Part shown: positions 3,860-23,665 of the stretch, piece by piece
Numbering within the stretch: the stretch's first letter is position 1
How the letters are laid out: each line of letters opens with the position of its first letter
NCBI GenBank assembly: GCA_027081275.1
Contig: JALWKV010000002.1
Coordinates: forward strand, 1,071 to 65,070
Reading direction: 5' to 3'
Length of the DNA: 64,000 nucleotides
DNA from: Gammaproteobacteria bacterium
Lineage (GTDB): Bacteria > Pseudomonadota > Gammaproteobacteria > UWMA-0217
The notes under the pieces: generated by a model
The model's input: only the letters and a program-made list of their open reading frames with translations
Databases searched by the model: none
Told to the model about the DNA's origin: nothing
Program-made: the position numbers and the translations under genes

Positions 3860-5275
<1,416 letters not shown>

Positions 5276-5463: not shown

Positions 5464-6867
5464 TCAGAAGCGATACGGCATGCGCAGGCCGAAGGTGAAG
5501 TCGGGTGCGTCGTCGGTCAGGCCGATACCCACGGTCCCAGCGATCGACAGGTGTTTGCCAAGGCTCTGGGTGACGCCGGTGTTGAACATGGCCGAGTTGG
5601 CGTCGCTGCCGGTTACGCTGGTCCAGCCACTGCCGGCGGTGCGGGTGCGGGTCTTGCTGGTCAGCTTGTGGCTGAAAGAGAGGCTCAGGCTGGTGTTTTC
5701 GTTCATCGCGATCGCCATGCCGAGGCCATAGCTCACCGAGTCGCCGAGGTCGATATCGCCGGCGGTGCGTGTCGCCGGGTCGGAATCGACGTCGGAGAAT
5801 GACTCCTTGCGGGTGTAGCCGATGCCGAAGTTGCCGAACAGCACAGCCGGGTCGCTGACCCTGACGAACGAGACGCCGGTATTGAGCGACCAGACGCCGC
5901 TGCCGGTCGGCAGGTTGGCTGGGACCGAGAAGGTCGTTACACCGTCCTGATCCTTTTCGATGATCTGAACGGGAACCCCGTACGGGTGCTTGCCGGTCGG
6001 TGCGGTGATGTCGATGTTCCAGACCCAGTCGAGCTTGCGCGCCGTTGGGAGCAAGCGGTAGCTCATGCCGAAGGAGGCGTCCCCGAGCGCCGGTTGCCGG
6101 GTGACGTCGGTTTCGCTGGTTGCCGTTGCGACGCCTCCGACACCGCCCTTGGCGTAGGTCGTGCTGCGGTAGACCAGTGGCGTCGTCAGGTTCAGTACCA
6201 TGCGGTTCGACACGCCATAGCGCGCTGTCAGCGAATAGGTGAGCGTGTCCGAAGCAACGCCCTCGACAGCCAGATTGCCGAGAAAGATGGCGTCGAGCGC
6301 GAGAAAGCCGTTCAGCGTCAGCTGGGTACGGTCATAGCGGCTGTAGTCGAGCGCCGACTCCAGCGTGAAGGTTTGGTTGAAAGAGGGGTGCTCCGCGTCG
6401 ATCAGATCTTCGACATTGCGAGAAATCGCCGCCACATCTCTCGCCTTTTTCCGATCGGTGCCGACCTGCTTGCCCGATGATGGGGGCGATGCTGGAGTCG
6501 TGTGCTGGCCTGAAGTCTGTTGGGAGCTCGGGGCTGCGGTGGATCGATGAGCATCGCTCCCGGTGAGCGCCTTCAGTTTGAGGTCGAGTGCCCGCAGTTT
6601 TCTCAGGTCGTTGTTGTATTGCCTTCGCAATAACAGCATTTCCTGTTCCAGTTGTTGTCGCGTGACGGTCGGTCCATCGTTCTTGTTTTGAGTATTGTCC
6701 TTGGATGTTGCCGATGAAACGGTTGCAGCTGTCCTCCCTGTTGAAAGCCCCCATTCCCTTTGCGAAGCTGATGAGCTGGTATCGGCCGCAAAAGAAGACG
6801 TGGCGACAATGGCGATTAGTATGGCCGCAGCGGCAGCCTTTGGGCCGAAATCCTTTTCAACTATCAT
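5464..6867 (-). CDS. fapF: FapF-like outer-membrane amyloid secretion pore
   Basis: It has a signal peptide, a coiled-coil segment (LEQEMLLLRRQYNNDLRKLRALDLKLKAL), a Ser/Thr/Pro/Ala-rich linker and a beta-barrel ending in ...MPYRF (C-terminal Phe). It is the last gene of the operon, as in Pseudomonas fap. Confidence 0.8.
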   Translation of the reverse strand: MIVEKDFGPKAAAAAILIAIVATSSFAADTSSSASQREWGLSTGRTAATVSSATSKDNTQNKNDGPTVTRQQLEQEMLLLRRQYNNDLRKLRALDLKLKALTGSDAHRSTAAPSSQQTSGQHTTPASPPSSGKQVGTDRKKARDVAAISRNVEDLIDAEHPSFNQTFTLESALDYSRYDRTQLTLNGFLALDAIFLGNLAVEGVASDTLTYSLTARYGVSNRMVLNLTTPLVYRSTTYAKGGVGGVATATSETDVTRQPALGDASFGMSYRLLPTARKLDWVWNIDITAPTGKHPYGVPVQIIEKDQDGVTTFSVPANLPTGSGVWSLNTGVSFVRVSDPAVLFGNFGIGYTRKESFSDVDSDPATRTAGDIDLGDSVSYGLGMAIAMNENTSLSLSFSHKLTSKTRTRTAGSGWTSVTGSDANSAMFNTGVTQSLGKHLSIAGTVGIGLTDDAPDFTFGLRMPYRF

Positions 6868-6921: not shown

Positions 6922-7713
6922 CTACAATCCTCGCAAACCGCTCAATGAAACGCCAAGAATCCTGCTCAGATTGGTCGACTCGTTGCCCGGTTTCATCAGA
7001 ATTGAGAGCTGCATACGGTTCGATATGGTGTGCGCATCGCCCAGCGTGCGGATCGACTGATGCGCGCCGCGACCCGTTCCGCCGATGACGGCGCCGCGAA
7101 TCGACTGCTGGACGACGCCTTGTCCCGCAATGGAGAGCGTTACCATCACGCCGCGCTCGTCGAGCCCAGAGCTGGCGGTAGCACCGGTGTTGTCGGTCAT
7201 GGTGCGGGAGACCGCTTCGGTCCCGCTGTCCCGCGACTCGGGCATGCTGTCGAGCATTCTGATGCCGAGCGTGTTCGAGGCCTGATTGAAATCACCGGCC
7301 ACCTGAATGGTCTGTCCCAGACCGGTCACGTTGTCGATGCCGCCCGGTTCGATGTGCCGGTCGGTGGGCGCCGCGCGTGTCGGAGTGCGGCCGCTGGATA
7401 CGATGCTCACGGTTGGCGTGAAGCTGACGGTGGGCGTGCCGCCGCCGGAAAAGTCCAGCCCGAGCCTGGCGCCACCCGATAGCTGCTGTCCCTGCGCCGT
7501 TTGCCACCTGCTCGCCATTTCCACGCCGAAATAGAGTACGCGATGGGTATCGACGACATATTTCCCCCTGATCTGCGCCATTTCCGGGTTGGTCAGCAGT
7601 GAGATGCCATTGCCCACGCTGCCATCGCCGGGCGCCGCCAGCAGCGCCGCTGGCGCCGCGGGCATCAATATCCCGGCGAGGAGATGGGCGATCAACCTCT
7701 TTCTCGTTTTCAT
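6922..7713 (-). CDS. fapE: FapE-like secreted protein
   Basis: It has a signal peptide, is 263 aa, and sits between the C39 peptidase gene and the fapF-like gene, the canonical fapE position. Any sequence similarity could not be checked. Confidence 0.55.
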   Translation of the reverse strand: MKTRKRLIAHLLAGILMPAAPAALLAAPGDGSVGNGISLLTNPEMAQIRGKYVVDTHRVLYFGVEMASRWQTAQGQQLSGGARLGLDFSGGGTPTVSFTPTVSIVSSGRTPTRAAPTDRHIEPGGIDNVTGLGQTIQVAGDFNQASNTLGIRMLDSMPESRDSGTEAVSRTMTDNTGATASSGLDERGVMVTLSIAGQGVVQQSIRGAVIGGTGRGAHQSIRTLGDAHTISNRMQLSILMKPGNESTNLSRILGVSLSGLRGL

Positions 7714-7725
7714 TTGTTGTGTTCC

Positions 7726-8430
7726 TCAGAAAAGGTCCGCATGAGTAAAACCGAAATCCAGCAGTTCCGAATCTGGTATCGCGGCCTGTTTTTCCAGCCA
7801 TTGATTGGCGCTGAGCCTGAACGGCATTTTCAGCAGTGCGGTGTTGCGATCGAAGCCGCTGCCGATGACAGCGAAAATCACCCGGTTGGCCCAGGCTTTG
7901 CGGAATGCTTCGAGATCCATCACCTTGTTGCCCAGTACCGGGTCGGCGAGAAACGCCTCGCCATCATGGATGCGTTTCAGAACGGAGAAATGCCGGTAGC
8001 CATCGATGTCCACCAGGACGATGACCGGGATCTTCAGTCTCTTCAGACGCTCCTCGGTAAGGCGATAACCGCGCCCGCGCAGCCCCAGTGATCCGACGTA
8101 GCGCTTCATGTCGAGCATCGAGAATCCTTTGCGTCGCACGATTTCTGCGTCGCCGGCATTGAGCATGCCCTGCATGATGACTTCTTCGGTCGCATCCATG
8201 CCGTAGCCGTACTTCAGAATCGTGGCCAGTGCCGCCGCGCCGCAGCTGTAGTCCGTTTGTTGCCTGATCACATTGGCGTATTTTGCTTCCTGCATGCTGA
8301 CGACGCGGCTGGTGTAGAGCCCGCCGAAAGCGGTTACGCCCGAGAACTGGACGTTTCCGGCGCCGGCGGTTGTCCCCGACAGGTACATCGCCGATGCCAG
8401 TAGTGCTGTGACGAAAGACTTGCGTTGCAT
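7726..8430 (-). CDS. fapD: FapD-like periplasmic C39-family cysteine peptidase
   Basis: It has a signal peptide and the peptidase C39 catalytic region ...QQTDYSCGAAALATILKYGYG... Confidence 0.8.
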   Translation of the reverse strand: MQRKSFVTALLASAMYLSGTTAGAGNVQFSGVTAFGGLYTSRVVSMQEAKYANVIRQQTDYSCGAAALATILKYGYGMDATEEVIMQGMLNAGDAEIVRRKGFSMLDMKRYVGSLGLRGRGYRLTEERLKRLKIPVIVLVDIDGYRHFSVLKRIHDGEAFLADPVLGNKVMDLEAFRKAWANRVIFAVIGSGFDRNTALLKMPFRLSANQWLEKQAAIPDSELLDFGFTHADLF

Positions 8431-8513: not shown

Positions 8514-10625
8514 TCAGTGGCCGGTGGGCTTGCTGGCCGTGCTGGAGGCGATCGCCAGGCTGTTGGCCTGCATGTTGCCGTTGCCGGATGACATGTTCAC
8601 GCCGATGTTGCCGCTGGCGCCGGACAGCGCATTGCCGCCCAGTACGACCCGGTTGACGGCGTTGTCGACGAGGATGTGCGTCTTGTAGGTAACGGTGCCC
8701 GAGACTTCCGTGGCCAGATTGATGTCAGACATCTCTTCGAAGCTCAGCGTGCCATTTTCGCTGCCGTTGCTGGAGGCGTTGACACTGCCGTTGATCTTGC
8801 CCGATTCACTCCCCGCGTACTTGCCGGAGGAGCTGGCCTGGGTCGAACCTGCGGCCTGGCCCTGGTAGCTTCCTTCCGCCTTGGCCTTCAGCTCGCCTTT
8901 TTCGTTGCCGCGATACTCGCCGGCCTCTCGTCCCTTGTACACACCTTGGGAGACTGCAGCGGTTTTACCCGCTTCCTCCCCCTGGTAGTAGCCTTCGTTC
9001 GTGGTTCTGAGCTTGCCCTGCTCGGTCCCCGCGAACTTGCCGGACTCCTTGCCCTCGTAGATGCCCTTGATTGTGGCCGAGGTGCTGCCTTCTTCCCTGC
9101 CTCGATAACGACCCTGGCTCGTCGCCCGGGTCTCGCCACTGGCGTCGCCGCGGAATTTGCCGCTTTCGCTGCCTTCATACTCGCCGACAGAGAGCGCTGC
9201 CGTGACGCCCACTTCGCCACCGCTGTAGCTGCCACTGCTGGTGCCGCTGTATGCGCCGGTCTCGCCACCGGTGATCTGTCCTGAAGCGTTGCCTTCATAG
9301 CTGCCGTTGGATGTCCCCTCGTAGGTGCCTTTTTCTTTCATCACGGTGATGCCGACGACAGGCAGCTTGTGTTTTCCTTTGTAGTTGCCGCTCTGCTCGG
9401 CACTTGTGGTGCCGGATTCGGTGCCGTTGTAGGAGGCCGCTATTTCGCCGTTGTAGAAGCCGCTGGTCTGGCTCTGGGTCGTTCCCGCCTCGACGCCGAT
9501 GTAACCACCGATCGATGCGGCTTCCGTGGTGCCTTCCTGCTCGCCTTCGTAGGTGCCGTTGATGGTGCCCTTGTAGCTGCCCGCGATGTGCGCCTGCGTA
9601 TTGCCGCGTGCCACGCCCTCGTAGTTGCCTGTCGACTTGGCGGCGGTCTTGCCGTAGCTCTCACCGTTGTATTCGCCTTGCAGTCTTCCAGCGTATTCGC
9701 CGGTGCTGTGCCCCGCGGTTCGTCCGCCGGTCTCACCCGCGTAGATGCCCAGCGAGATCCCTGCTGTCGCACCCTCCGCCTGACCGTTGTAGCGGCCCGC
9801 TTCCTGGCCCTGGTACGCGCCGGCGATGTTGGCGGTGGTTGTACCTTTCTCGGCGCCCTTGTAGCTGCCTGTCAGCTGCGCCGACGTGGCGCCGCTCGCG
9901 CTGCCGCTGTAGTTGGCGTTCACGCTGCCGTTGATATTCGCGTTGGTCTGACCGGCGTAGCTGCCCTTGCCAACGCCCCTGGAGGTACCGTTCGATTCGC
10001 CCTTGAGTTCGATCGTGGTGGAATCGGAGACGACGTCGTAGCGACCTTCGGTGGTGACCGAGTTGCCGATTGACTCCTGATGGACGCCGGCGGAAGCCGC
10101 CACTGGTCCGGTTGAGGAGACCGATACGGCAAAATCGTTCTTTTGCAGATTGAAATTGCCGGAAGCGATGTTGGCGCCGACGTTGCCGCTAACGTTGCTG
10201 ATGGCGTAACCATCGAGCCATGCCTCATTGCGACTGCCCGAGCTGGAAAACCTGTTGCCGTTGATGCGCTGCTCGACGAAAACCTCGGCCGTCGGGTCGC
10301 CGAAGACAAAGGACGCATCGCTGTCGGACGTGGCGATGGCAGCGGCGTTGGCCTGCATGTTGTTGTCGCCCGAGGAAATGTTCACGCCCATGTTGCCGGA
10401 GGTATCCTTCATAGCGTTCTCGTTGAGCGACGACTGGTTGTCGGCTGACTTGACGACAATGGCGTTGCCTTCGGCTGCCTGCCTATCGGAGACCGATGCC
10501 ATTGCCTGGGCCGCGACGGTATTGCCGTTTTGTGCCGGCGTCGTTTCGGTCGCAAGCAGCGGGGTGCTCGTGATGCATGCGGTGACTGCGACACAGATTG
10601 CAGTTTTCTTGTATTGGATTTTCAT
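8514..10625 (-). CDS. fapC: FapC-like amyloid major subunit with a greatly expanded repetitive linker (703 aa)
   Basis: After the signal peptide there are two N-terminal Fap repeats (SGNMGVNISSGDNNMQANAAAIA and SGNVGANIASGNFNLQKNDFAVS) and one C-terminal Fap repeat (SGNIGVNMSSGNGNMQANSLAIAS). They are separated by ~450 aa of 11-residue GxYxGxxxGxx repeats. The ATG at 10625 has a GGGAGAAGAGAG ribosome-binding site, whereas the ORF-track start at 10643 is TTG. Confidence 0.8.
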   Translation of the reverse strand: MKIQYKKTAICVAVTACITSTPLLATETTPAQNGNTVAAQAMASVSDRQAAEGNAIVVKSADNQSSLNENAMKDTSGNMGVNISSGDNNMQANAAAIATSDSDASFVFGDPTAEVFVEQRINGNRFSSSGSRNEAWLDGYAISNVSGNVGANIASGNFNLQKNDFAVSVSSTGPVAASAGVHQESIGNSVTTEGRYDVVSDSTTIELKGESNGTSRGVGKGSYAGQTNANINGSVNANYSGSASGATSAQLTGSYKGAEKGTTTANIAGAYQGQEAGRYNGQAEGATAGISLGIYAGETGGRTAGHSTGEYAGRLQGEYNGESYGKTAAKSTGNYEGVARGNTQAHIAGSYKGTINGTYEGEQEGTTEAASIGGYIGVEAGTTQSQTSGFYNGEIAASYNGTESGTTSAEQSGNYKGKHKLPVVGITVMKEKGTYEGTSNGSYEGNASGQITGGETGAYSGTSSGSYSGGEVGVTAALSVGEYEGSESGKFRGDASGETRATSQGRYRGREEGSTSATIKGIYEGKESGKFAGTEQGKLRTTNEGYYQGEEAGKTAAVSQGVYKGREAGEYRGNEKGELKAKAEGSYQGQAAGSTQASSSGKYAGSESGKINGSVNASSNGSENGTLSFEEMSDINLATEVSGTVTYKTHILVDNAVNRVVLGGNALSGASGNIGVNMSSGNGNMQANSLAIASSTASKPTGH

Positions 10626-10654
10626 AAGACTCTCTTCTCCCAAGTGGATTGATG

Positions 10655-11314
10655 TTATGGAGTGGTTTGCATGAACACGCGGTTTTGCGTGACGTTGTGC
10701 ATCCCTGCTGCCTGGTTGAGCTGAAGCACGCCCTTGACGCCTCGGAAGGCCGTCTTGTCGACATGTGCGGTGCGAATGCCGCCGGATTTCCTGTCATTGG
10801 ACCGTCCGGATGCAGCGGCGACATCCAGTGAAGTCTGCGCCAGCAGATCATCGGTCAGCTCCGCCGGCAGTCTTTCATGTGAAATGGTGATGGCATTGCT
10901 TTCCAGATTGCCGGCGCCGCTGGCCTGGTTGATCGACAGTAGACCAACCGTGTTTTGAAATGCGTTTTCGCGGATGCTGGTGGTCAAGGCGTCGGCGGAT
11001 GTTGCGCCGGCCAGTGATGAAACCTGTCTGATGCTGGCTGTGGCCGGCCCCGAGCCGGCGCCTTCATTGATCGCGCGGACGTTGGCCTGCAGGTTGAAAT
11101 CTCCTGCTGCCTGGTTGATCCCGACGATCCCCTTGACATTACTGAGTGCGTTGTTGGTGATGATGGCGTCGCTGAGATGGCCGAAGTCTTCGGTAGCCGT
11201 CAGCGGCTGGGTCGTGCCGGCGAGCGCCAGCCCTATTGCCGAGGCGGTGAAGAAACGTCGAAACGGATATTCCGAAAATGGTATCCGCCTGTTCTGACTG
11301 GTCTTGCTGGACAT
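10655..11314 (-). CDS. fapB: FapB-like amyloid minor subunit / nucleator
   Basis: It has a signal peptide plus three Fap repeats (GIVGINQAAGDFNLQANVRAIN, VGLLSINQASGAGNLESNAITI, KGVLQLNQAAGMHNVTQNRVFM) matching the GxxGxNQAAGxxNxQxN consensus. It is the first gene of the operon, with a GGGAGGA ribosome-binding site. Confidence 0.75.
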   Translation of the reverse strand: MSSKTSQNRRIPFSEYPFRRFFTASAIGLALAGTTQPLTATEDFGHLSDAIITNNALSNVKGIVGINQAAGDFNLQANVRAINEGAGSGPATASIRQVSSLAGATSADALTTSIRENAFQNTVGLLSINQASGAGNLESNAITISHERLPAELTDDLLAQTSLDVAAASGRSNDRKSGGIRTAHVDKTAFRGVKGVLQLNQAAGMHNVTQNRVFMQTTP

Positions 11315-11343
11315 AGATCCTCCCGTTTGCTGCGAGGGGTAAT

Positions 11344-11358
11344 GCAGAAGGTGTGCCA
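11344..11358 (-). promoter_or_regulatory. sigma-54 (-24/-12) promoter of the fap operon
   Basis: The minus strand reads cTGGCACaccttcTGCat: a perfect TGGCAC -24 box, GG-N10-GC spacing and a TGC -12 element. It ends ~30 nt upstream of the fapB ATG. Confidence 0.5.
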
Positions 11359-11418
11359 GCGTCGTAACAGGCTGTAAACCCAGGTGTTTCTGTTGTCGTA
11401 GGGCCCCGGCTCGGGGGT

Positions 11419-11508
11419 GATCTGTTCAGATCTTTTACAGCGCTTGAGCCGCTTCCCAGCCATTCCGCGGTTTTCACGGAAAAAGCGGCTGTTCAGGATC
11501 TGAACAGC
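11419..11508. promoter_or_regulatory. Two related palindromic sites (GATCTG-TT-CAGATC at 11419-11432; GCTGTTCAG-GAT-CTGAACAGC at 11488-11508), candidate enhancer for the sigma-54 activator
   Basis: The two perfect dyads are centred ~70 bp apart, 75-145 bp upstream of the -24 box. This is the typical geometry for an enhancer-binding-protein site. The divergent lipoprotein gene shares this region. Confidence 0.4.
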
Positions 11509-11809
11509 TGGGGACGCGGCAGGTGGCTGGCGCTTGGGGAAGAAGAGAGGTTGGATCTGTGGGAGCGTACTGTACGGGACGCAACGGCGGATGGCCGCGA
11601 GAAGCGCGGACTACATGATGAAGTGAAGAGTTTCACAGAATCGTCGGAGAATGGCGATCCTTCTTATGATTGCTGAACTTTGCGCAAAATCCCCCTGTCG
11701 GATTGGTACCGATGGTTGCCGCGCCGGGAATTGCCCGGGGTTGTGGCCGTGTCGGATCCGGTACTTCAATCGCAAATGAGCTTCGCTCAAACGACTCGGG
11801 GTAGACACC

Positions 11810-12841
11810 ATGCGCGCCAGATACGCCACGCTTTTTCTTTCCAGCCTGCTGTTTCTTGCAGCCTGTGACCCCGAAGAAACAGGCTACAAGGACTGGTCGT
11901 TTCTGACCGCGGACAAGAGCGGGGTGCTTGGCGCACCACTGATATCGGGCATGGCCTACAGCACATCGACCAATCACGGGCTGACCGATGACAAGGGCCG
12001 CTTCAACTACCGCGACGGCCAGCAGATCGGTTTCTCCATCGGCGACATCAATCTGCCGCGCGTGACCGCCAAGCCGCTGATCCGGCTGGTGGACTTCGGT
12101 GGCGGGCAGGAGAACCAGGTGGTGCGCAATATTCGCCGTCTGCTGTGGACGCTGGACACCGACGGCAATCCGGCCAACGGCATCACCATCGACGCGATCG
12201 CGCGGGAAAGGGCCAAGTCCGCCCTGGTCGACTTCAACATGCCCACCGATGCCGCTTTCGAGGCGAATGTGGCCAACTATCTGGCGCGGGTGAAACCGGC
12301 CAATCCGGTGCTGGTCTCGCTCGATGCCGCAGCGCCGGCAGCGGGCGGCACGACACCGGCGGCGAGTACAGGTGGACATGGGGGCGGCGCGGGCCAGATC
12401 CCGGTCGATCCGCCCGCGCCGGCAACATCTTCCGAGTCGACATCCGGGACGCCGACGGCGCTCGAGCCTCCGCGCCGGCTGACGGTCAACGCGGCTGCCA
12501 TCGGCATGAATATCGTCTCCGAGGATGGCGCCGGTTATGTCTTTGAAGCGCAGGCCGGCAAGACGTACACGATCACCGTGGTGCCGAAGACGCCGACCGA
12601 TGATCCCGAGGTATTCGTCTTCCGCAACTTGACCGACATGCGCAATTACTGGAGCGTGGAAGCGATCGGCGGGGTGGACTCGCCGGAAGCGACGGCATTG
12701 CGGGTCGGCATTTCGACCAGCGAGCCGGGCATGACGGAAACGATCTCGTTTACGGCCGATCGTGGCGGCGACTACTTCATCATGATCGTCGATACCTCGA
12801 ATCGCGGGAATGCGACGATCACGGTGACCGAGCAGCCGTAG
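11810..12841 (+). CDS. lipoprotein of unknown function (lipobox LFLAAC), Ala/Gly/Pro/Thr-rich linker, C-terminal beta-rich domain
   Basis: It has a signal peptide with a lipobox cysteine and coherent codon usage. It is divergent from the fap operon. No family was recognised. Confidence 0.6.
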   Translation: MRARYATLFLSSLLFLAACDPEETGYKDWSFLTADKSGVLGAPLISGMAYSTSTNHGLTDDKGRFNYRDGQQIGFSIGDINLPRVTAKPLIRLVDFGGGQENQVVRNIRRLLWTLDTDGNPANGITIDAIARERAKSALVDFNMPTDAAFEANVANYLARVKPANPVLVSLDAAAPAAGGTTPAASTGGHGGGAGQIPVDPPAPATSSESTSGTPTALEPPRRLTVNAAAIGMNIVSEDGAGYVFEAQAGKTYTITVVPKTPTDDPEVFVFRNLTDMRNYWSVEAIGGVDSPEATALRVGISTSEPGMTETISFTADRGGDYFIMIVDTSNRGNATITVTEQP

Positions 12842-19838: not shown

Positions 19839-20918
19839 TCATTGGGTGGCCGCATTCAGTGTTTCGGTCAGCGCTGCGGCGGGAAAGTCGGCGGTCACGA
19901 CGGCCTTGCCGATGGCTTGGGGCAGCACCAGCCGGAGCGCGCCGCCCACGACCTTCTTGTCGACCGCCATCAGTTCACGGAAGCGCGCCGACGTCATCCC
20001 CTCCGGTGGCGTCAGTGGCAGCCCGGCGCTGGCGATGAGCGTGCGGATGCGACCGACTTCCTCCTCCTGCACCCAGCCGAGTCGCTGGGCCATTTCGGCC
20101 GCCAGCACCATCCCGGCGGCAACGGCCTCGCCGTGCAGCCAGGTGCCGTAGCCGGTGGCTGTTTCGATGGCGTGGCCGAAGGTGTGACCGAGGTTGAGCA
20201 GGGCGCGTTGCCCCTTCTCCTTTTCGTCCGCCGCCACGATATCGGCCTTGATCTCGCAGGAGCGTCGGATGGCGTAGGCGAGGGCGGGCTTGTCGCGCGC
20301 GATGAGCTTTGTCATGTTGGCTTCGAGCCAGGCGAAGAAGTCGGCGTCGAGAATGATGCCGTACTTGATCACCTCGGCGATGCCGGCGGCGAGCTGCCGG
20401 TCGTCGAGCGTATCGAGCGTGTCGGTGTCGATGATGACGCACTGTGGCTGGTAGAAGGCGCCAATCATGTTCTTGCCCAGCGGATGGTTGACGCCGGTCT
20501 TGCCGCCCACCGACGAATCGACCATTGCCAGCAGCGTGGTGGGCACCTGGATGAAATCGACGCCGCGTTGGTAGCAGGCGGCGGCGAAACCGGTCATGTC
20601 GCCGACAACGCCGCCACCCAGGGCGATCAGCGTCGTGCCGCGATCCATCCGCGTCTCCAGCAGCCCGGTAAAGACCTGCTGCAGCACTTCCAGCGTCTTG
20701 TACCGCTCACCGTCGGGCAGCAGGATTTCGGTGCTTTTCAGGCCGGTGAGGTGCCTGGCCACGCGCTCGGCATAGAGCGGTCCGACGGTGGTATTGCTGA
20801 CCAGCGCGGCCGACTGGCCCGCGATGTGGTCGGTCAGCAGCTCGGGGCGGTCGAGCAGCCCGCTGCCGATGTAGATGGGGTAGCTGCGATCGCCAAGATC
20901 GACATTGAGTGTTTCCAT
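19839..20918 (-). CDS. aroB: 3-dehydroquinate synthase
   Basis: 359 aa; the DHQS family NAD and metal binding regions are present. Confidence 0.9.
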
Positions 20919-20927
20919 GGGGACGGG

Positions 20928-21455
20928 TTATTCCTGTTCTGCCGTGGTTGCCGCGTTGTAGGCGGCGACAATCTTGTTTTTCAGCGTTCGCGTCCGGCTG
21001 TGGTTGGTGTTGATGCTGAAATGGGCCGTCTCCTCATAGAGCGGCTTGCGAATCTCCGCCAGCCGGGTCAGCGTTGCGGCCGGATCGGGCGTCTGCAGCA
21101 GGGGCCTCGAGCGATCGCGCATCGTGCGCTCCAGCTGCTGACGGATCGAGACCTTCAGGTAGACGACGAAGCCGCGCTCGTGCAGCCAGCGCCGGTTCTC
21201 GGGGCGCAGAATCGCGCCGCCGCCGGTGGCGAGGACGATGCGGTCGCGCTGGGTCAGCTCGTCGATGATGCGGCTTTCGCGCTCGCGGAATCCTTCCTCC
21301 CCCTCGATATCGAAGATCGTCGGAATGGTCACGCCGGTGCGCGCCTCGATGACGCGGTCGCTGTCGACGAAGTCGTAGCCGAGATCCTGGGCAATGAGCC
21401 TTCCGAGCGTGGTTTTTCCGGCTCCCATCGGGCCGATCAGGAAGAGGCGCTGCAT
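20928..21455 (-). CDS. aroK: shikimate kinase
   Basis: [32 protein letters not shown]; the start is ambiguous among several in-frame Met residues. Confidence 0.9.
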
Positions 21456-21565
21456 ACGCATAGGTGTTGTGACAATGCCATACATGATACCCCAATAGCC
21501 GCGGCCGGCGCATGAACGAAAAGGCCCGCTTGTGGCGGGCCTTTTCGTATGGCGGGATTGCCCCG

Positions 21566-23665
21566 CTATTGCAGCGTCAGGTCCTCGTTGATGATCTTCG
21601 GCGTGACGAAGATCAGCAGTTCCGACTTGTCGTGGGTGTTGCTGTTGCTACGGAACAGGCGACCGATGACGGGCAGGTCGCCGAAGAACGGCACGCGCGT
21701 TTCGGAGTTCGTCTTGTTCTCCTCGAAGATGCCGCCGAGGACGATGGTCTGGCCGTTTTCGACCAGCACCTGGGTCTGCACCTCGCGCGTGTCGATGCTC
21801 GGGATGTTGTTGAAGACATCGCCGACGCTGTCGCGGTTCACCACCAGCTCGAGATTGATGCGGTCGTCGAGCGTGATGTGGGGCGTGACCTCCATGCTCA
21901 GCACCGCCTTCTTGAACGAGGTGTTGGTGGCGCCGCTGGAGGTGGCTTCCTGGTAGGGAATCTCCACGCCCTGCTCGATGCGCGCCTTGGTCTTGTTCGA
22001 GGTGATGATGCGCGGGCTGGCGACGACCTCGGCGCGACGCTCGGCGACAGCGGCGGAGAGCTCGAGATCGAGCTTCGCGCCCAGCGGAATCTTCGCCAGC
22101 GCAAGGCCGAGCGTGCCGGCGGTGCCGCCCACCGGGGTGTTGACCTGGAATCCGGTCGTCAGGTTCTGGTCGGTCGTATTGTTGGTATTGGATACGCCGA
22201 AGGTCACGCCCAGCTCACGGGTGAACTTGTCATTGGCGGTAACGATCCGGCTTTCGATCATCACCTGCCGCACCGGCACGTCGAGCGTCTTGATCAGGGC
22301 GCGGATCTCGTCGAGCTTGTCGGCGGTGTCCTGGATCAGCAGGCTGTTGGTGCGACGGTCGAGGGTGATGCTGCCGCGGTCCGACAGAACGGTGTTGGCG
22401 CTGCCACGACTGCCACCGTTCGACTTCAGCAGCTTGACCATCTCCTTGGCGTCGGCGTAGTTCAGCGGGATGATCTCGGTGCGCAGCGGCGCCAGTTCGG
22501 CCACCTGCTTCGACGCCATCAGCTCCTGCTGCTCACGCTCGGCGATCTCCTTGGCCGGCGCGATATAGAGCACGTTGCCCTGGCGGCGCTTGGCCAGCCC
22601 CTTGGTCTTCATGATGATGTCGAGCGCCTGATCCCAGGGGACGTTCTTCAGGCGCAGCGTCAGATTGCCGGTCACGCTGTCGGAGACGACGACATTGAGG
22701 CCGGTAAAGTCGGCGATCAGCTGCAGCACGGAGCGCACCTCGATGTCCTGAAAGTTCAGCGACAGGCGCTCCCCCTTGTAGCTGATCTCCTGCTTCTTTC
22801 TGGCTTTTTTCGCGCCCTTGATCGGACGAACCTCGACCGTGTAGACGTCGTCCGACTGGTAGGCAAGCTGCGAAAAGTTGCCCTTGGCCTTGATGACGAT
22901 CTCGGTATTGCGGCCGACCGAGCGCGCGTCGATGGACTCCACCGGCGTGGCGAAGTCGAGTACGTCCATGTGGCGCTCGAGATTTTTCGGCAAGGTTGCG
23001 TTCTTCAGTTCGACAACGATGCGCGAGCCCTGCTGCTTGATGTTCAGCGGCGTGCTGGGGTCGCGCAGCTTGATCAGTACGCGGCCGGCGCCGTCGGGGC
23101 CGCGGCGGAAGTCGATGCCGGTGACGCCGAACAGCGGCTTGGGCCGGGATCGCGCGGCGGGTTTGGGTGGTGCGGCCTGCATGGCCGTTGCCGGCGCGGC
23201 GGGGGCCGCCGGCGGCTCGATGGTGAAGCTCGGCTGCGCGGCGGCCGGCGAGAGCGACACGATGAGCTTGTTGCCTTCGCTCCGGGTCTGATACTTCACC
23301 ATGCGTGACAGGTTGATGACCATGCGGGTGCGGTCACGGGCCTGGGCGGTGGTGATGCTCTGGGCGGCGCCGATCTGAACCGGCAGCGAGCGCCGGCGCA
23401 GGTTGTTGCGCGTATTGGGAAAATCCAGCGTGATGCGCGCGGGATTGGCGATGGTGAAGCTCAGCGGCTCGGGGGCGGGGCCGGAAAAATCCATGACGAT
23501 GTCGAGCGCGTCGCCCGACTGCCGATTGATACGGATATCCTCCAGCGATGTGGTCTCCGCCACGGCTGACGCCAGCGGAAGGATCGTCAGCAACAACAGG
23601 GCGAATGTCGCCATCCATGCCCGGACCCTCCCATCTGTTCGTATGATTTCGCGCATATCCATCAT
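21566..23665 (-). CDS. pilQ: type IV pilus secretin PilQ
   Basis: It has AMIN/N domains and a C-terminal secretin domain, and is the last gene of pilMNOPQ; the start is uncertain. Confidence 0.9.

Follow-up and report, generated by a model that had tools for sequence, protein, structure and literature searches.

FapC is one of two model bacterial functional amyloids. In the FapC proteins of Pseudomonas (those of UK4, PAO1, Pf-5 and P. putida F1; Protein Data Bank (PDB) entries 9u4u and 9nqd), whose gene follows fapB and is itself followed by fapD, fapE and fapF, three imperfect repeats (R1, R2 and R3) with the motif GN(I/V)G(V/A)N...N.Q.N are joined by a short linker, L1, of 28-34 amino acids (aa) and a variable linker, L2, of irregular sequence and 35-259 aa (PMC12392863). 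Each FapC molecule contributes three stacked Greek-key layers to the fibre, and both ends of L2 must meet adjacent layers of the core (PMC12392863, PMC12822426). The linkers are thought to set the width, stiffness and surface chemistry of the fibre and are usually treated as disordered; in Pseudomonas, fibres are wider and softer at the periphery when L2 is longer (PMC12392863). Here, we describe a fapC gene from an uncultured, sulfur-type, Thiotrichales-like gammaproteobacterium, found in a stretch of 64,000 nucleotides (nt) of contig JALWKV010000002.1 (assembly GCA_027081275.1; hereafter the window). The protein has the general plan of Pseudomonas FapC, with R1, R2 and R3, an L1 of 31 aa and an L2 between R2 and R3. 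Its L2, however, reaches 482 aa and, in contrast to the irregular sequence of the Pseudomonas linkers, is a strictly periodic array constrained by selection. It therefore lies outside the published range of L2 lengths, as a sequence-only reading of the window had suggested.

The fapC gene and its operon

The frame that holds the long linker is a minus-strand open reading frame (ORF) at 8514..10643, which encodes 709 aa from a TTG start (ORF listing). Translation of fapC almost certainly begins at the ATG at 10625; this codon lies downstream of the ribosome-binding site GGGAGAAGAGAG and is the start common to all orthologues. The gene so delimited (8514..10625, minus strand) encodes 703 aa plus a stop codon and, at 2112 nt, lies beyond the published range of three-repeat FapC genes, which span 700-1600 (evidently nucleotides) among 1031 genes in GTDB (PMC12392863). 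Residue numbers below follow the 709-aa frame unless the 703-aa protein is stated. ORFs on the opposite strand within the array (for example 8676..9284, plus strand) were considered and set aside as GC-rich shadow frames, as homology, conservation and codon-position selection all follow the minus frame.

Five NCBIfam Fap models match adjacent minus-strand genes in the canonical order B-C-D-E-F, and fapC is the second gene of the cluster with FapBC repeats. The genes are fapB (10655..11314, 219 aa; FapB model, E 2.9e-28), fapC (E 6e-45), fapD (7726..8430, a C39 peptidase; C39_FapD model, E 2.7e-75, and Pfam Peptidase_C39), fapE (6922..7713; FapE model, E 8.8e-22) and fapF (5464..6867, the outer-membrane transporter; FapF model, E 9e-114). 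The same gene order is found at seven related loci (L001, L002 and L004-L008). The match of the protein to the FapC model (NF058558) covers model positions 1-317 of 321 with a score of 154.3 bits, and the FapC homologues in the databases carry the PF27129 FapBC family. A profile, A1, made from an alignment of the window FapC with 24 homologues (25 sequences) retrieved the solved FapC structures from the PDB (9nqd, E 3.5e-37; 9u4u, E 9.9e-36). When the AlphaFold2 (AF2) model was compared with the PDB using Foldseek, the top match was again a FapC (9u4u_A, E 4.4e-6), with a template-modelling (TM) score of only 0.34 and a root-mean-square deviation of 15 Å. The Fap repeats are rich in β structure in this model, with a predicted local distance difference test (pLDDT) of 72-86.

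A probable Sec signal peptide (MKIQYKKTAICVAVTACITSTPLLAT; 10548..10625, minus strand) was read from the sequence, and AF2 predicts a helix at residues 6-18. The three repeats follow on the same strand: R1 at 10326..10439 (aa 69-106; motif GNMGVNISSGDNNMQANAAAIA; AF2 pLDDT ~80-85), R2 at 10113..10232 (aa 138-177; motif GNVGANIASGNFNLQKND) and R3 at 8541..8666 (aa 660-701; motif GNIGVNMSSGNGNMQANSLAIA; 79-81% identical to the orthologues). Equivalent columns of the first two repeats are invariant throughout A1, namely G77, N78, N82, G86, N89, Q91 and N93 in R1 and G147, N148, N152, G156, N159, Q161 and N163 in R2. FapC proteins of ordinary length from Gammaproteobacteria and Betaproteobacteria (Rhodanobacter sp. 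T12-5, Amphritea balenae, Methylotenera sp., and the Guyparkeria and Pseudoxanthomonas loci L004-L008) share 35-45% identity with the window protein in the Fap repeats.

Three observations tell against this assignment. The FapC score lies below the NCBIfam equivalog cut-off of 195 bits, and all five Fap genes score below their own cut-offs, as expected of a fap lineage distant from Pseudomonas. No fapA was found upstream of fapB (window 11315..11800, minus strand), leaving an operon fapBCDEF; among the known variants of the fap operon, the one without fapA is the commonest (PMC3792158). Finally, the C-terminal CxxC motif, which is conserved in Pseudomonas FapC (PMC6173800), is absent: the terminus, ...SLAIASSTASKPTGH, has no Cys and ends ...ASSTASKPTGH (8514..8560, minus strand). 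The motif is likewise absent from the homologues P0001-P0020 and present in the Guyparkeria proteins (L005-L007, ACNTCAGG). The window system thus differs from that of Pseudomonas in lacking both fapA and the CxxC motif, and also in having a sigma-54 activator gene beside the operon. Judged by its sequence, repeats, operon position and L1 length, the protein is the FapC of a fapBCDEF system, a variant of a known amyloid and not a new system. The sequence-only reading had also recognized a FapC homologue in a fap operon.

Repeat architecture of the L2 linker

The L2 linker extends from the end of R2 to the start of R3 (8667..10112, minus strand; aa 178-659), where the sequence-only reading had placed a long low-complexity region. 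The comparison of its length with other FapC proteins rests on the published GTDB census; word-indexed protein searches returned 40 FapC homologues in all, each of 265-533 aa. The periodic core of L2 comprises aa 227-630 (8754..9965), which is slightly offset from the 8700-9950 first given for the array.

The periodicity was assessed over aa 215-636 by Fourier analysis and by autocorrelation against 500 shuffles. Coincidences of Gly with Gly are enriched at every multiple of four residues (z 12.7-14.9), and residue identity peaks at lags of 8 (z 11.5), 16 (z 13.7), 24 (z 13.5) and, most strongly, 40 (z 17.0). The distance from one aromatic residue to the next is 16 residues in 15 cases and eight residues in nine. 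A lag of 11 is depleted, both for identity (z = -3.3) and for Gly with Gly (z = -4.5), which contradicts the initial description of the region as about 40 imperfect repeats of 11 aa. The spacing on which that description drew is real, in that Gly recurs at i, i+4 and i+8 and Tyr or Phe lies two residues after Gly; the 11-residue unit is not, and the three 11-mers given as examples of it (aa 315-347) are out of register with one another, with Gly at positions 1/5/9, 2/6 and 3/7/11, respectively.

Instead, the array consists of 49 octads that form about ten super-repeats of 40 aa. Octads of type A (29 in number) have the form GxYxGxxx with the consensus G-x-Y-x-G-x-(E/A)-x, and those of type B (20) have the form GxTxAxxx with the consensus G-x-T-x-A-x-(S/I)-x; their order is mostly A-B-A-A-B, which gives rise to the 40-residue super-repeat. 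The array is split in two by a hydrophobic, Pro/Gly-containing interruption, as had been noted from the sequence (LPVVGITVMKEK, aa 427-438; 9330..9365, minus strand), which lies no more than four residues from the array midpoint and which we propose as a turn or tip. Arm 1 precedes it (aa 227-426, 200 aa; 9366..9965) with 25 octads in the order ABABABAABABAABABAABABAABA, and arm 2 follows it (aa 439-630, 192 aa; 8754..9329) with 24 octads in the order AABAABAABABAABABAABABABB.

The DNA does not contain the 33-bp imperfect repeat first described for it: neither Tandem Repeats Finder nor a repeat search showed such a unit, and the former returned a single weak 24-nt repeat of 1.9 copies (9899..9944). 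Dispersed copies are 60-81% identical, and nearly all of their spacings are multiples of 12 nt.

Conservation and selection in the array

A scan of the genome collection with FapF identified three close loci (L001-L003) in metagenome-assembled genomes (MAGs) of uncultured Thiotrichales/Gammaproteobacteria, with FapF 63-68% identical to that of the window, as well as the more distant Guyparkeria and Pseudoxanthomonas loci. Two of the MAGs (L001 and L002) encode 694-aa FapC orthologues that carry the same array, with linkers ~52-53% identical to that of the window (52% by tblastn over all 422 linker residues). A much closer relative, L012, comes from a different JGI metagenome; its fapC is identical in 96.7% of nucleotides and 97% of amino acids, has the same 703 codons and no indel, and differs by 69 scattered substitutions, nearly two-thirds of them synonymous. 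The repeat architecture is thus conserved in at least two lineages.

In a global alignment of the window FapC with that of L001 the linker contains gaps of only 4, 2 and 4 aa, all beside the central interruption, and the arms are otherwise gap-free. These indels amount to one tetrad on each side of the interruption and two residues in the tip itself. The interruption has a counterpart in the same place in the orthologue (SVIGFPVATET), where the arms, counted from the alignment, are 196 and 188 aa long, so that it lies within four residues of the midpoint in both lineages. The order A-B-A-A-B is also kept between the lineages. Orthologous octads are more alike than paralogous octads (53% versus 29% identity over all positions and 26% versus 10.5% over even positions), which indicates that the array predates the split of the lineages and has not been homogenized.

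Conservation within the octad alternates from one residue to the next. With both arms summed, window and L001 are identical at position 1 in 47 of 48 octads, at positions 3 and 5 in 41 of 48 each and at position 7 in 26 of 48, whereas positions 2, 4, 6 and 8 are each identical in only 11-15 of ~47-48. The same pattern is seen in the ratio of nonsynonymous to synonymous substitution rates (dN/dS), which was taken from the pair of the window and L012, dS between the window and L001 being saturated in the linker. The ratio is 0.06-0.09 for the Fap repeats and 0.24 for the whole linker array, which separates into 0.023 for its odd positions and 0.44 for its even positions; the constrained face of the linker is therefore under stronger selection than the Fap repeats themselves. 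Among the 20 amino-acid changes in the arms, 19 fall on even positions (binomial p ~2e-5), and the sole change at an odd position is from Ala to Gly at position 5. Every second residue is thus subject to very strong purifying selection, and the residues in between drift. A period-2 constraint that runs over two stretches of ~200 residues with no tolerated indels is what would be expected of β structure with one constrained face, and argues for this rather than for a disordered spacer.

Origin and relatives of the linker motif

FapC homologues of ordinary length carry the GxYxG tetrad/octad motif as short runs within L2 (Rhodanobacter, Amphritea, Methylotenera, Guyparkeria and others). Their linkers resemble that of the window in miniature: R2 is followed by a run of 3-14 Gly tetrads of the form GxYxG or GxSxG (for example GGYSGSASGTTTG), a conserved central core of 45-62 aa (DQIGNVYPDIW...GHFDLDTQTQGGSDLN.DGGALAF), a second run of similar length (for example GTYSGSESGSYSGSERG) and, finally, R3. 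The two runs are correlated in their number of tetrads (Spearman 0.62, p 0.001; 24 short-L2 homologues, uncorrected for phylogeny), the second run usually being one or two tetrads shorter than the first. The window differs in having ~50 tetrads per side and, in place of the core, the 12-aa hydrophobic Pro/Gly segment. Since the motif is already present in the short homologues, the array is an in-place expansion: both runs of a motif that is native to L2 in this FapC clade have grown, and the central core has been lost. The array is therefore not a foreign module, and the second, non-Fap module fused into FapC that the sequence-only reading had envisaged is not supported.

A different expansion was seen in the FapC homologues of Pseudoxanthomonas and its relatives (L004, 5971..8052; L008, 6414..8102; P0009 and P0010). 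It precedes R1 and consists of N-terminal repeats rich in Asp, Thr, Ser and Tyr (such as SYTDTVDKSL and TSDISETF units) in proteins of 519-562 aa; the region in L004 includes a masked run (X).

An exhaustive HMMER search of 1.84 billion representatives with the linker returned only compositional matches with Gly at every fourth residue, and did not return the proteins of the window clade itself, including the FapC of L017 (described below). The compositional matches were to a eukaryote-like GKIRGDSQ protein and to phage or virus fibre-like GNVxGDVx proteins. The best non-FapC matches among the representatives (P0022, P0024, P0026 and P0030) belong to the latter type, (G-N/D-V/L-x)n, and resemble the window array in repeating Gly at intervals of four for hundreds of residues. 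They differ from it in that the identity is 27-32% and driven by Gly alone, with no Tyr at position 3, no A and B octads and no 40-residue order. They also occur in the context of tail-collar domains and match Pfam Gly-zipper models, whereas the window linker matches none of these (Gly-zipper_Omp, _YMGG or _OmpA). A search of PDB sequences with the linker gave low-complexity noise only, and aa 227-630 matched no Pfam family at E <= 10, including the Ice_nucleation and Gly-zipper models. In the literature we found no description of FapC in Thiotrichales or of periodic Gly/Tyr linkers in FapC. On these searches, the linker has no relative outside its clade.

Structural interpretation of the array

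The best explanation, which we favour with moderate confidence, is that of a FapC whose L2 motif, amplified to 49 octads, forms a two-armed, paired β stalk on the amyloid core. The paired stalk is suggested by the near-equal arms, the Pro/Gly segment at the midpoint, the symmetric indels beside it, the correlated run lengths in the shorter homologues and the topology that connects R2 to R3. At the base of L2, AF2 with A1 predicts two single β strands of 32 residues each, one at the N-terminal end (aa 195-226 of the 703-aa protein; 9948..10043, minus strand; pLDDT 54-77) and one at the C-terminal end (aa 622-653 of the 703-aa protein; 8667..8762, minus strand; pLDDT 59-77), which may pair with each other.

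By homology, FapC would be exported by Sec and would then pass unfolded through FapF, after which R1, R2 and R3 would stack as a cross-β core, as in Pseudomonas FapC. The arms would take up an extended β conformation in which Gly alternates with Tyr, Thr or Ala on the conserved face and the other face is free. Tyr lying across Gly of a partner strand is a stabilizing arrangement in sheets. Pairing of the two arms would return the chain to R3 in the adjacent layer of the core, with the interruption as the tip, and every subunit would show an ordered, Tyr-studded stalk or blade decorated with Glu and Lys, which would place one such projection on the fibre about every 1.4 nm (3 x 4.8 Å). Such a coat would thicken the fibre and might tune its mechanics, hydration or adhesion, or the cross-linking of fibres in the biofilm matrix.

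Several points count against a paired stalk. AF2 gave no confident structure for aa 228-621: the array was unaligned in the prediction for the full protein with A1 (pLDDT ~31), and prediction of the linker alone without an alignment was uninformative (pLDDT 32), so that, with no usable alignment depth, the outcome is uninformative rather than negative. The pairing of the base strands is inferred from their equal length, and the run lengths of the 24 short homologues were correlated with no correction for phylogeny. In a comparison of the two arms by hand, the forward and reversed registers of octad order each matched at ~20 of 24 octads; ABAAB read backwards is itself a rotation of ABAAB, so that the A/B order is silent on whether the arms would pair in parallel or antiparallel. 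A plain hairpin does not account for the 40-residue super-period, which suggests higher-order coiling or solenoid-like packing, and, to our knowledge, a two-stranded ribbon of 200 residues would be unprecedented. Lastly, the composition of the linker (Gly 21%, Ser 12%, Ala 11%, Glu 10%, Thr 10% and Tyr 7%), rich in Gly, Ser, Thr, Glu and Lys with few large hydrophobic residues, is like that of disordered or elastomeric proteins.

This last point is also the starting point for an alternative that we consider unlikely, namely that the linker is an intrinsically disordered `fuzzy coat' in which Tyr stickers are separated by Gly, Ser, Thr, Glu and Lys spacers, and which would either form a hydrated entropic brush or cross-link fibres, reversibly or through dityrosine. 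The FUS low-complexity/LARKS [G/S]Y[G/S] domains and resilin are of this kind, with regularly spaced Tyr in a Gly/Ser-rich background and possible reversible cross-β or dityrosine contacts. The low pLDDT in the array and the want of any Pfam or PDB counterpart for the linker would both agree with disorder. Furthermore, the literature treats FapC linkers as flexible, fuzzy coats that soften the periphery of the fibre (PMC12392863), and FapC must remain unfolded during secretion (PMC6173800). The conservation of the array is less easily reconciled with this alternative. Indels are normally tolerated in disordered sequence and in the FUS and resilin types, which keep no strict phase, whereas here two arms of ~190 residues are gap-free at 53% identity with the phase of Gly and the length retained. 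The strict period-2 selection (dN/dS 0.023 versus 0.44) extends to position 7 and to the B octads, which lack Tyr, and this points to a β strand rather than to isolated stickers; the conserved order of the octads between lineages speaks against disorder as well. On balance, the pattern of selection in these sequences argues for ordered β structure over a disordered spacer.

A second alternative, which we judge to be quite improbable, is that each arm, or the array as a whole, is a β-solenoid with one 40-residue super-repeat per coil, forming a compact domain that binds a surface such as mineral, ice, water or polysaccharide. The hierarchy of periods (8, 16/24 and 40) with its maximum at lag 40 is what such a fold would produce, and the three Tyr and two Thr positions of each super-repeat would then stack as ladders. 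The ice-nucleation proteins (the InaZ and InaK family) are extracellular and have hierarchical octad repeats of 8/16/48 residues that are rich in Gly, Tyr, Ser, Thr and Ala. The hierarchy of the window array (8/16+24/40), with its Gly, Tyr, Ser and Thr, recalls theirs, and a 40-residue coil would be close to the 38-39-residue layer of a Fap repeat (PMC12392863). However, there is no sequence similarity to these proteins, and no Pfam family, Ice_nucleation included, is matched at a threshold as loose as E <= 10; the motif is GxYxG and not the GYG of GYGS-TxT or AGYGSTxT; and the array sits in an amyloid subunit, split into two arms, and is not a member of that family. The period-2 conservation is unbroken through all octads, whereas the turns of a solenoid usually break the alternation of inward and outward residues. 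In a single solenoid of ten coils, a distance of ~5 nm would separate the two ends of L2, which must join adjacent layers, and a reversal of the chain at the central break would still be needed. No solenoid appears in the AF2 output.

The paired stalk can also be stated in a stronger form, in which the array is a previously undescribed ordered β-repeat fold with two paired arms of ~200 residues on every Fap subunit, making the fibre a `bottle-brush' amyloid; this we regard as possible rather than probable. If true, such a fibre would have a rigid cross-β core with regularly spaced, Tyr-lined blades or stalks that are possibly tens of nanometres long. Its ordered array would run counter to the present picture of FapC linkers as disordered fuzz, and would be a naturally occurring template for mounting long ordered modules on amyloid scaffolds. 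More broadly, the array ties the short Gly/Tyr runs of ordinary FapC linkers to a probable paired-stalk architecture, which gives a structural hypothesis for L2 in many Fap systems, and it provides a design from nature on which amyloid materials that display long arrays could be engineered. As judged from sequence, the window clade has the most extreme natural L2 so far, about twice as long as the longest studied, and the first whose sequence behaves like that of a folded repeat. The array is real, conserved and structurally intriguing, yet it lies within a family that is already known for highly variable linkers.

Integrity of the array in independent assemblies

The array is genuine and not an artefact of assembly, as independent assemblies agree on its length and its DNA copies are too diverged to collapse. 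An identical 703-aa FapC is encoded at the same fap locus on a scaffold of ENA ERZ23491300, scaffold_302 (L017, JOHN19-1_SAMN10217876_METAG-scaffold_302, 65,950 nt), which over 6.7 kb differs from the window by one substitution and an indel in the intergenic region between fapF and the regulator gene. Contigs of other metagenomes and MAGs break at the edges of the array, with that of L014 ending (1802) at the first linker residue and those of L003 (1-356) and L015 (1-375) beginning in the last octads, or inside it, with that of L011/P0109 ending (4141) ~60 aa into the array; these breaks point to difficulty in assembling the region from some samples. The truncated contigs also suggest that the array is probably present in at least two further lineages. 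That repeat expansion, collapse or a chimera in a short-read metagenome produced the array, the outcome that the sequence-only reading had itself raised as one that would overturn it, is nevertheless scarcely conceivable, as copies only 60-81% identical are too diverged for an assembler to collapse or expand, L012 has the same length in another metagenome with its substitutions scattered and no indel, the architecture recurs in L001 and L002 at 53% identity, and no stop interrupts the frame over 703 codons, with selection that is codon-aware.

Regulation and genomic neighbourhood

Directly after fapF lies a gene for a VpsR-family sigma-54 activator (3860..5275, minus strand; Pfam VpsR, Sigma54_activat and HTH_8). 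A gene of this family adjoins fapF at eight related loci (L001, L003-L008 and L010), on the opposite strand in those of Pseudoxanthomonas. A sigma-54-type -24/-12 motif, TGGCACaccttCTGCA (TGGCAC-N5-YTGCW; 11343..11358, minus strand), is located ~30 nt upstream of fapB; the number of its occurrences in the window does not by itself reach significance. A single copy of the motif is present in every one of the six clade loci that include the fapB upstream region (L001, 5314-5329; L002, 5470-5485; L011, 2558-2573; L012, 441-456; L013, 5818-5833; L014, 372-387), its place relative to fapB not having been verified in every locus. The Pseudomonas fap operon has been described as encoding no regulator (PMC6173800). 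The VpsR-family activator may be a dedicated fap regulator outside Pseudomonas, and together with the promoter motif it provides a lead on fap regulation there.

Divergent from the fap promoter is an ORF of 343 aa (11810..12841, plus strand) with a lipoprotein-like N-terminus and a weak match to SslE/AcfD lipoproteins (E 8.9e-5, far below the cut-off). Farther away, two long adjacent ORFs of 557 and 598 aa (19842..23308, plus strand) match no Pfam family at E <= 1e-5. Elsewhere, the genes of the window look like ordinary chromosomal housekeeping genes, including those for Dfp, PBP1A, a ClpA/B-type ATPase, haem-copper oxidase subunit I (COX1 family), FixG and a P-type heavy-metal ATPase.

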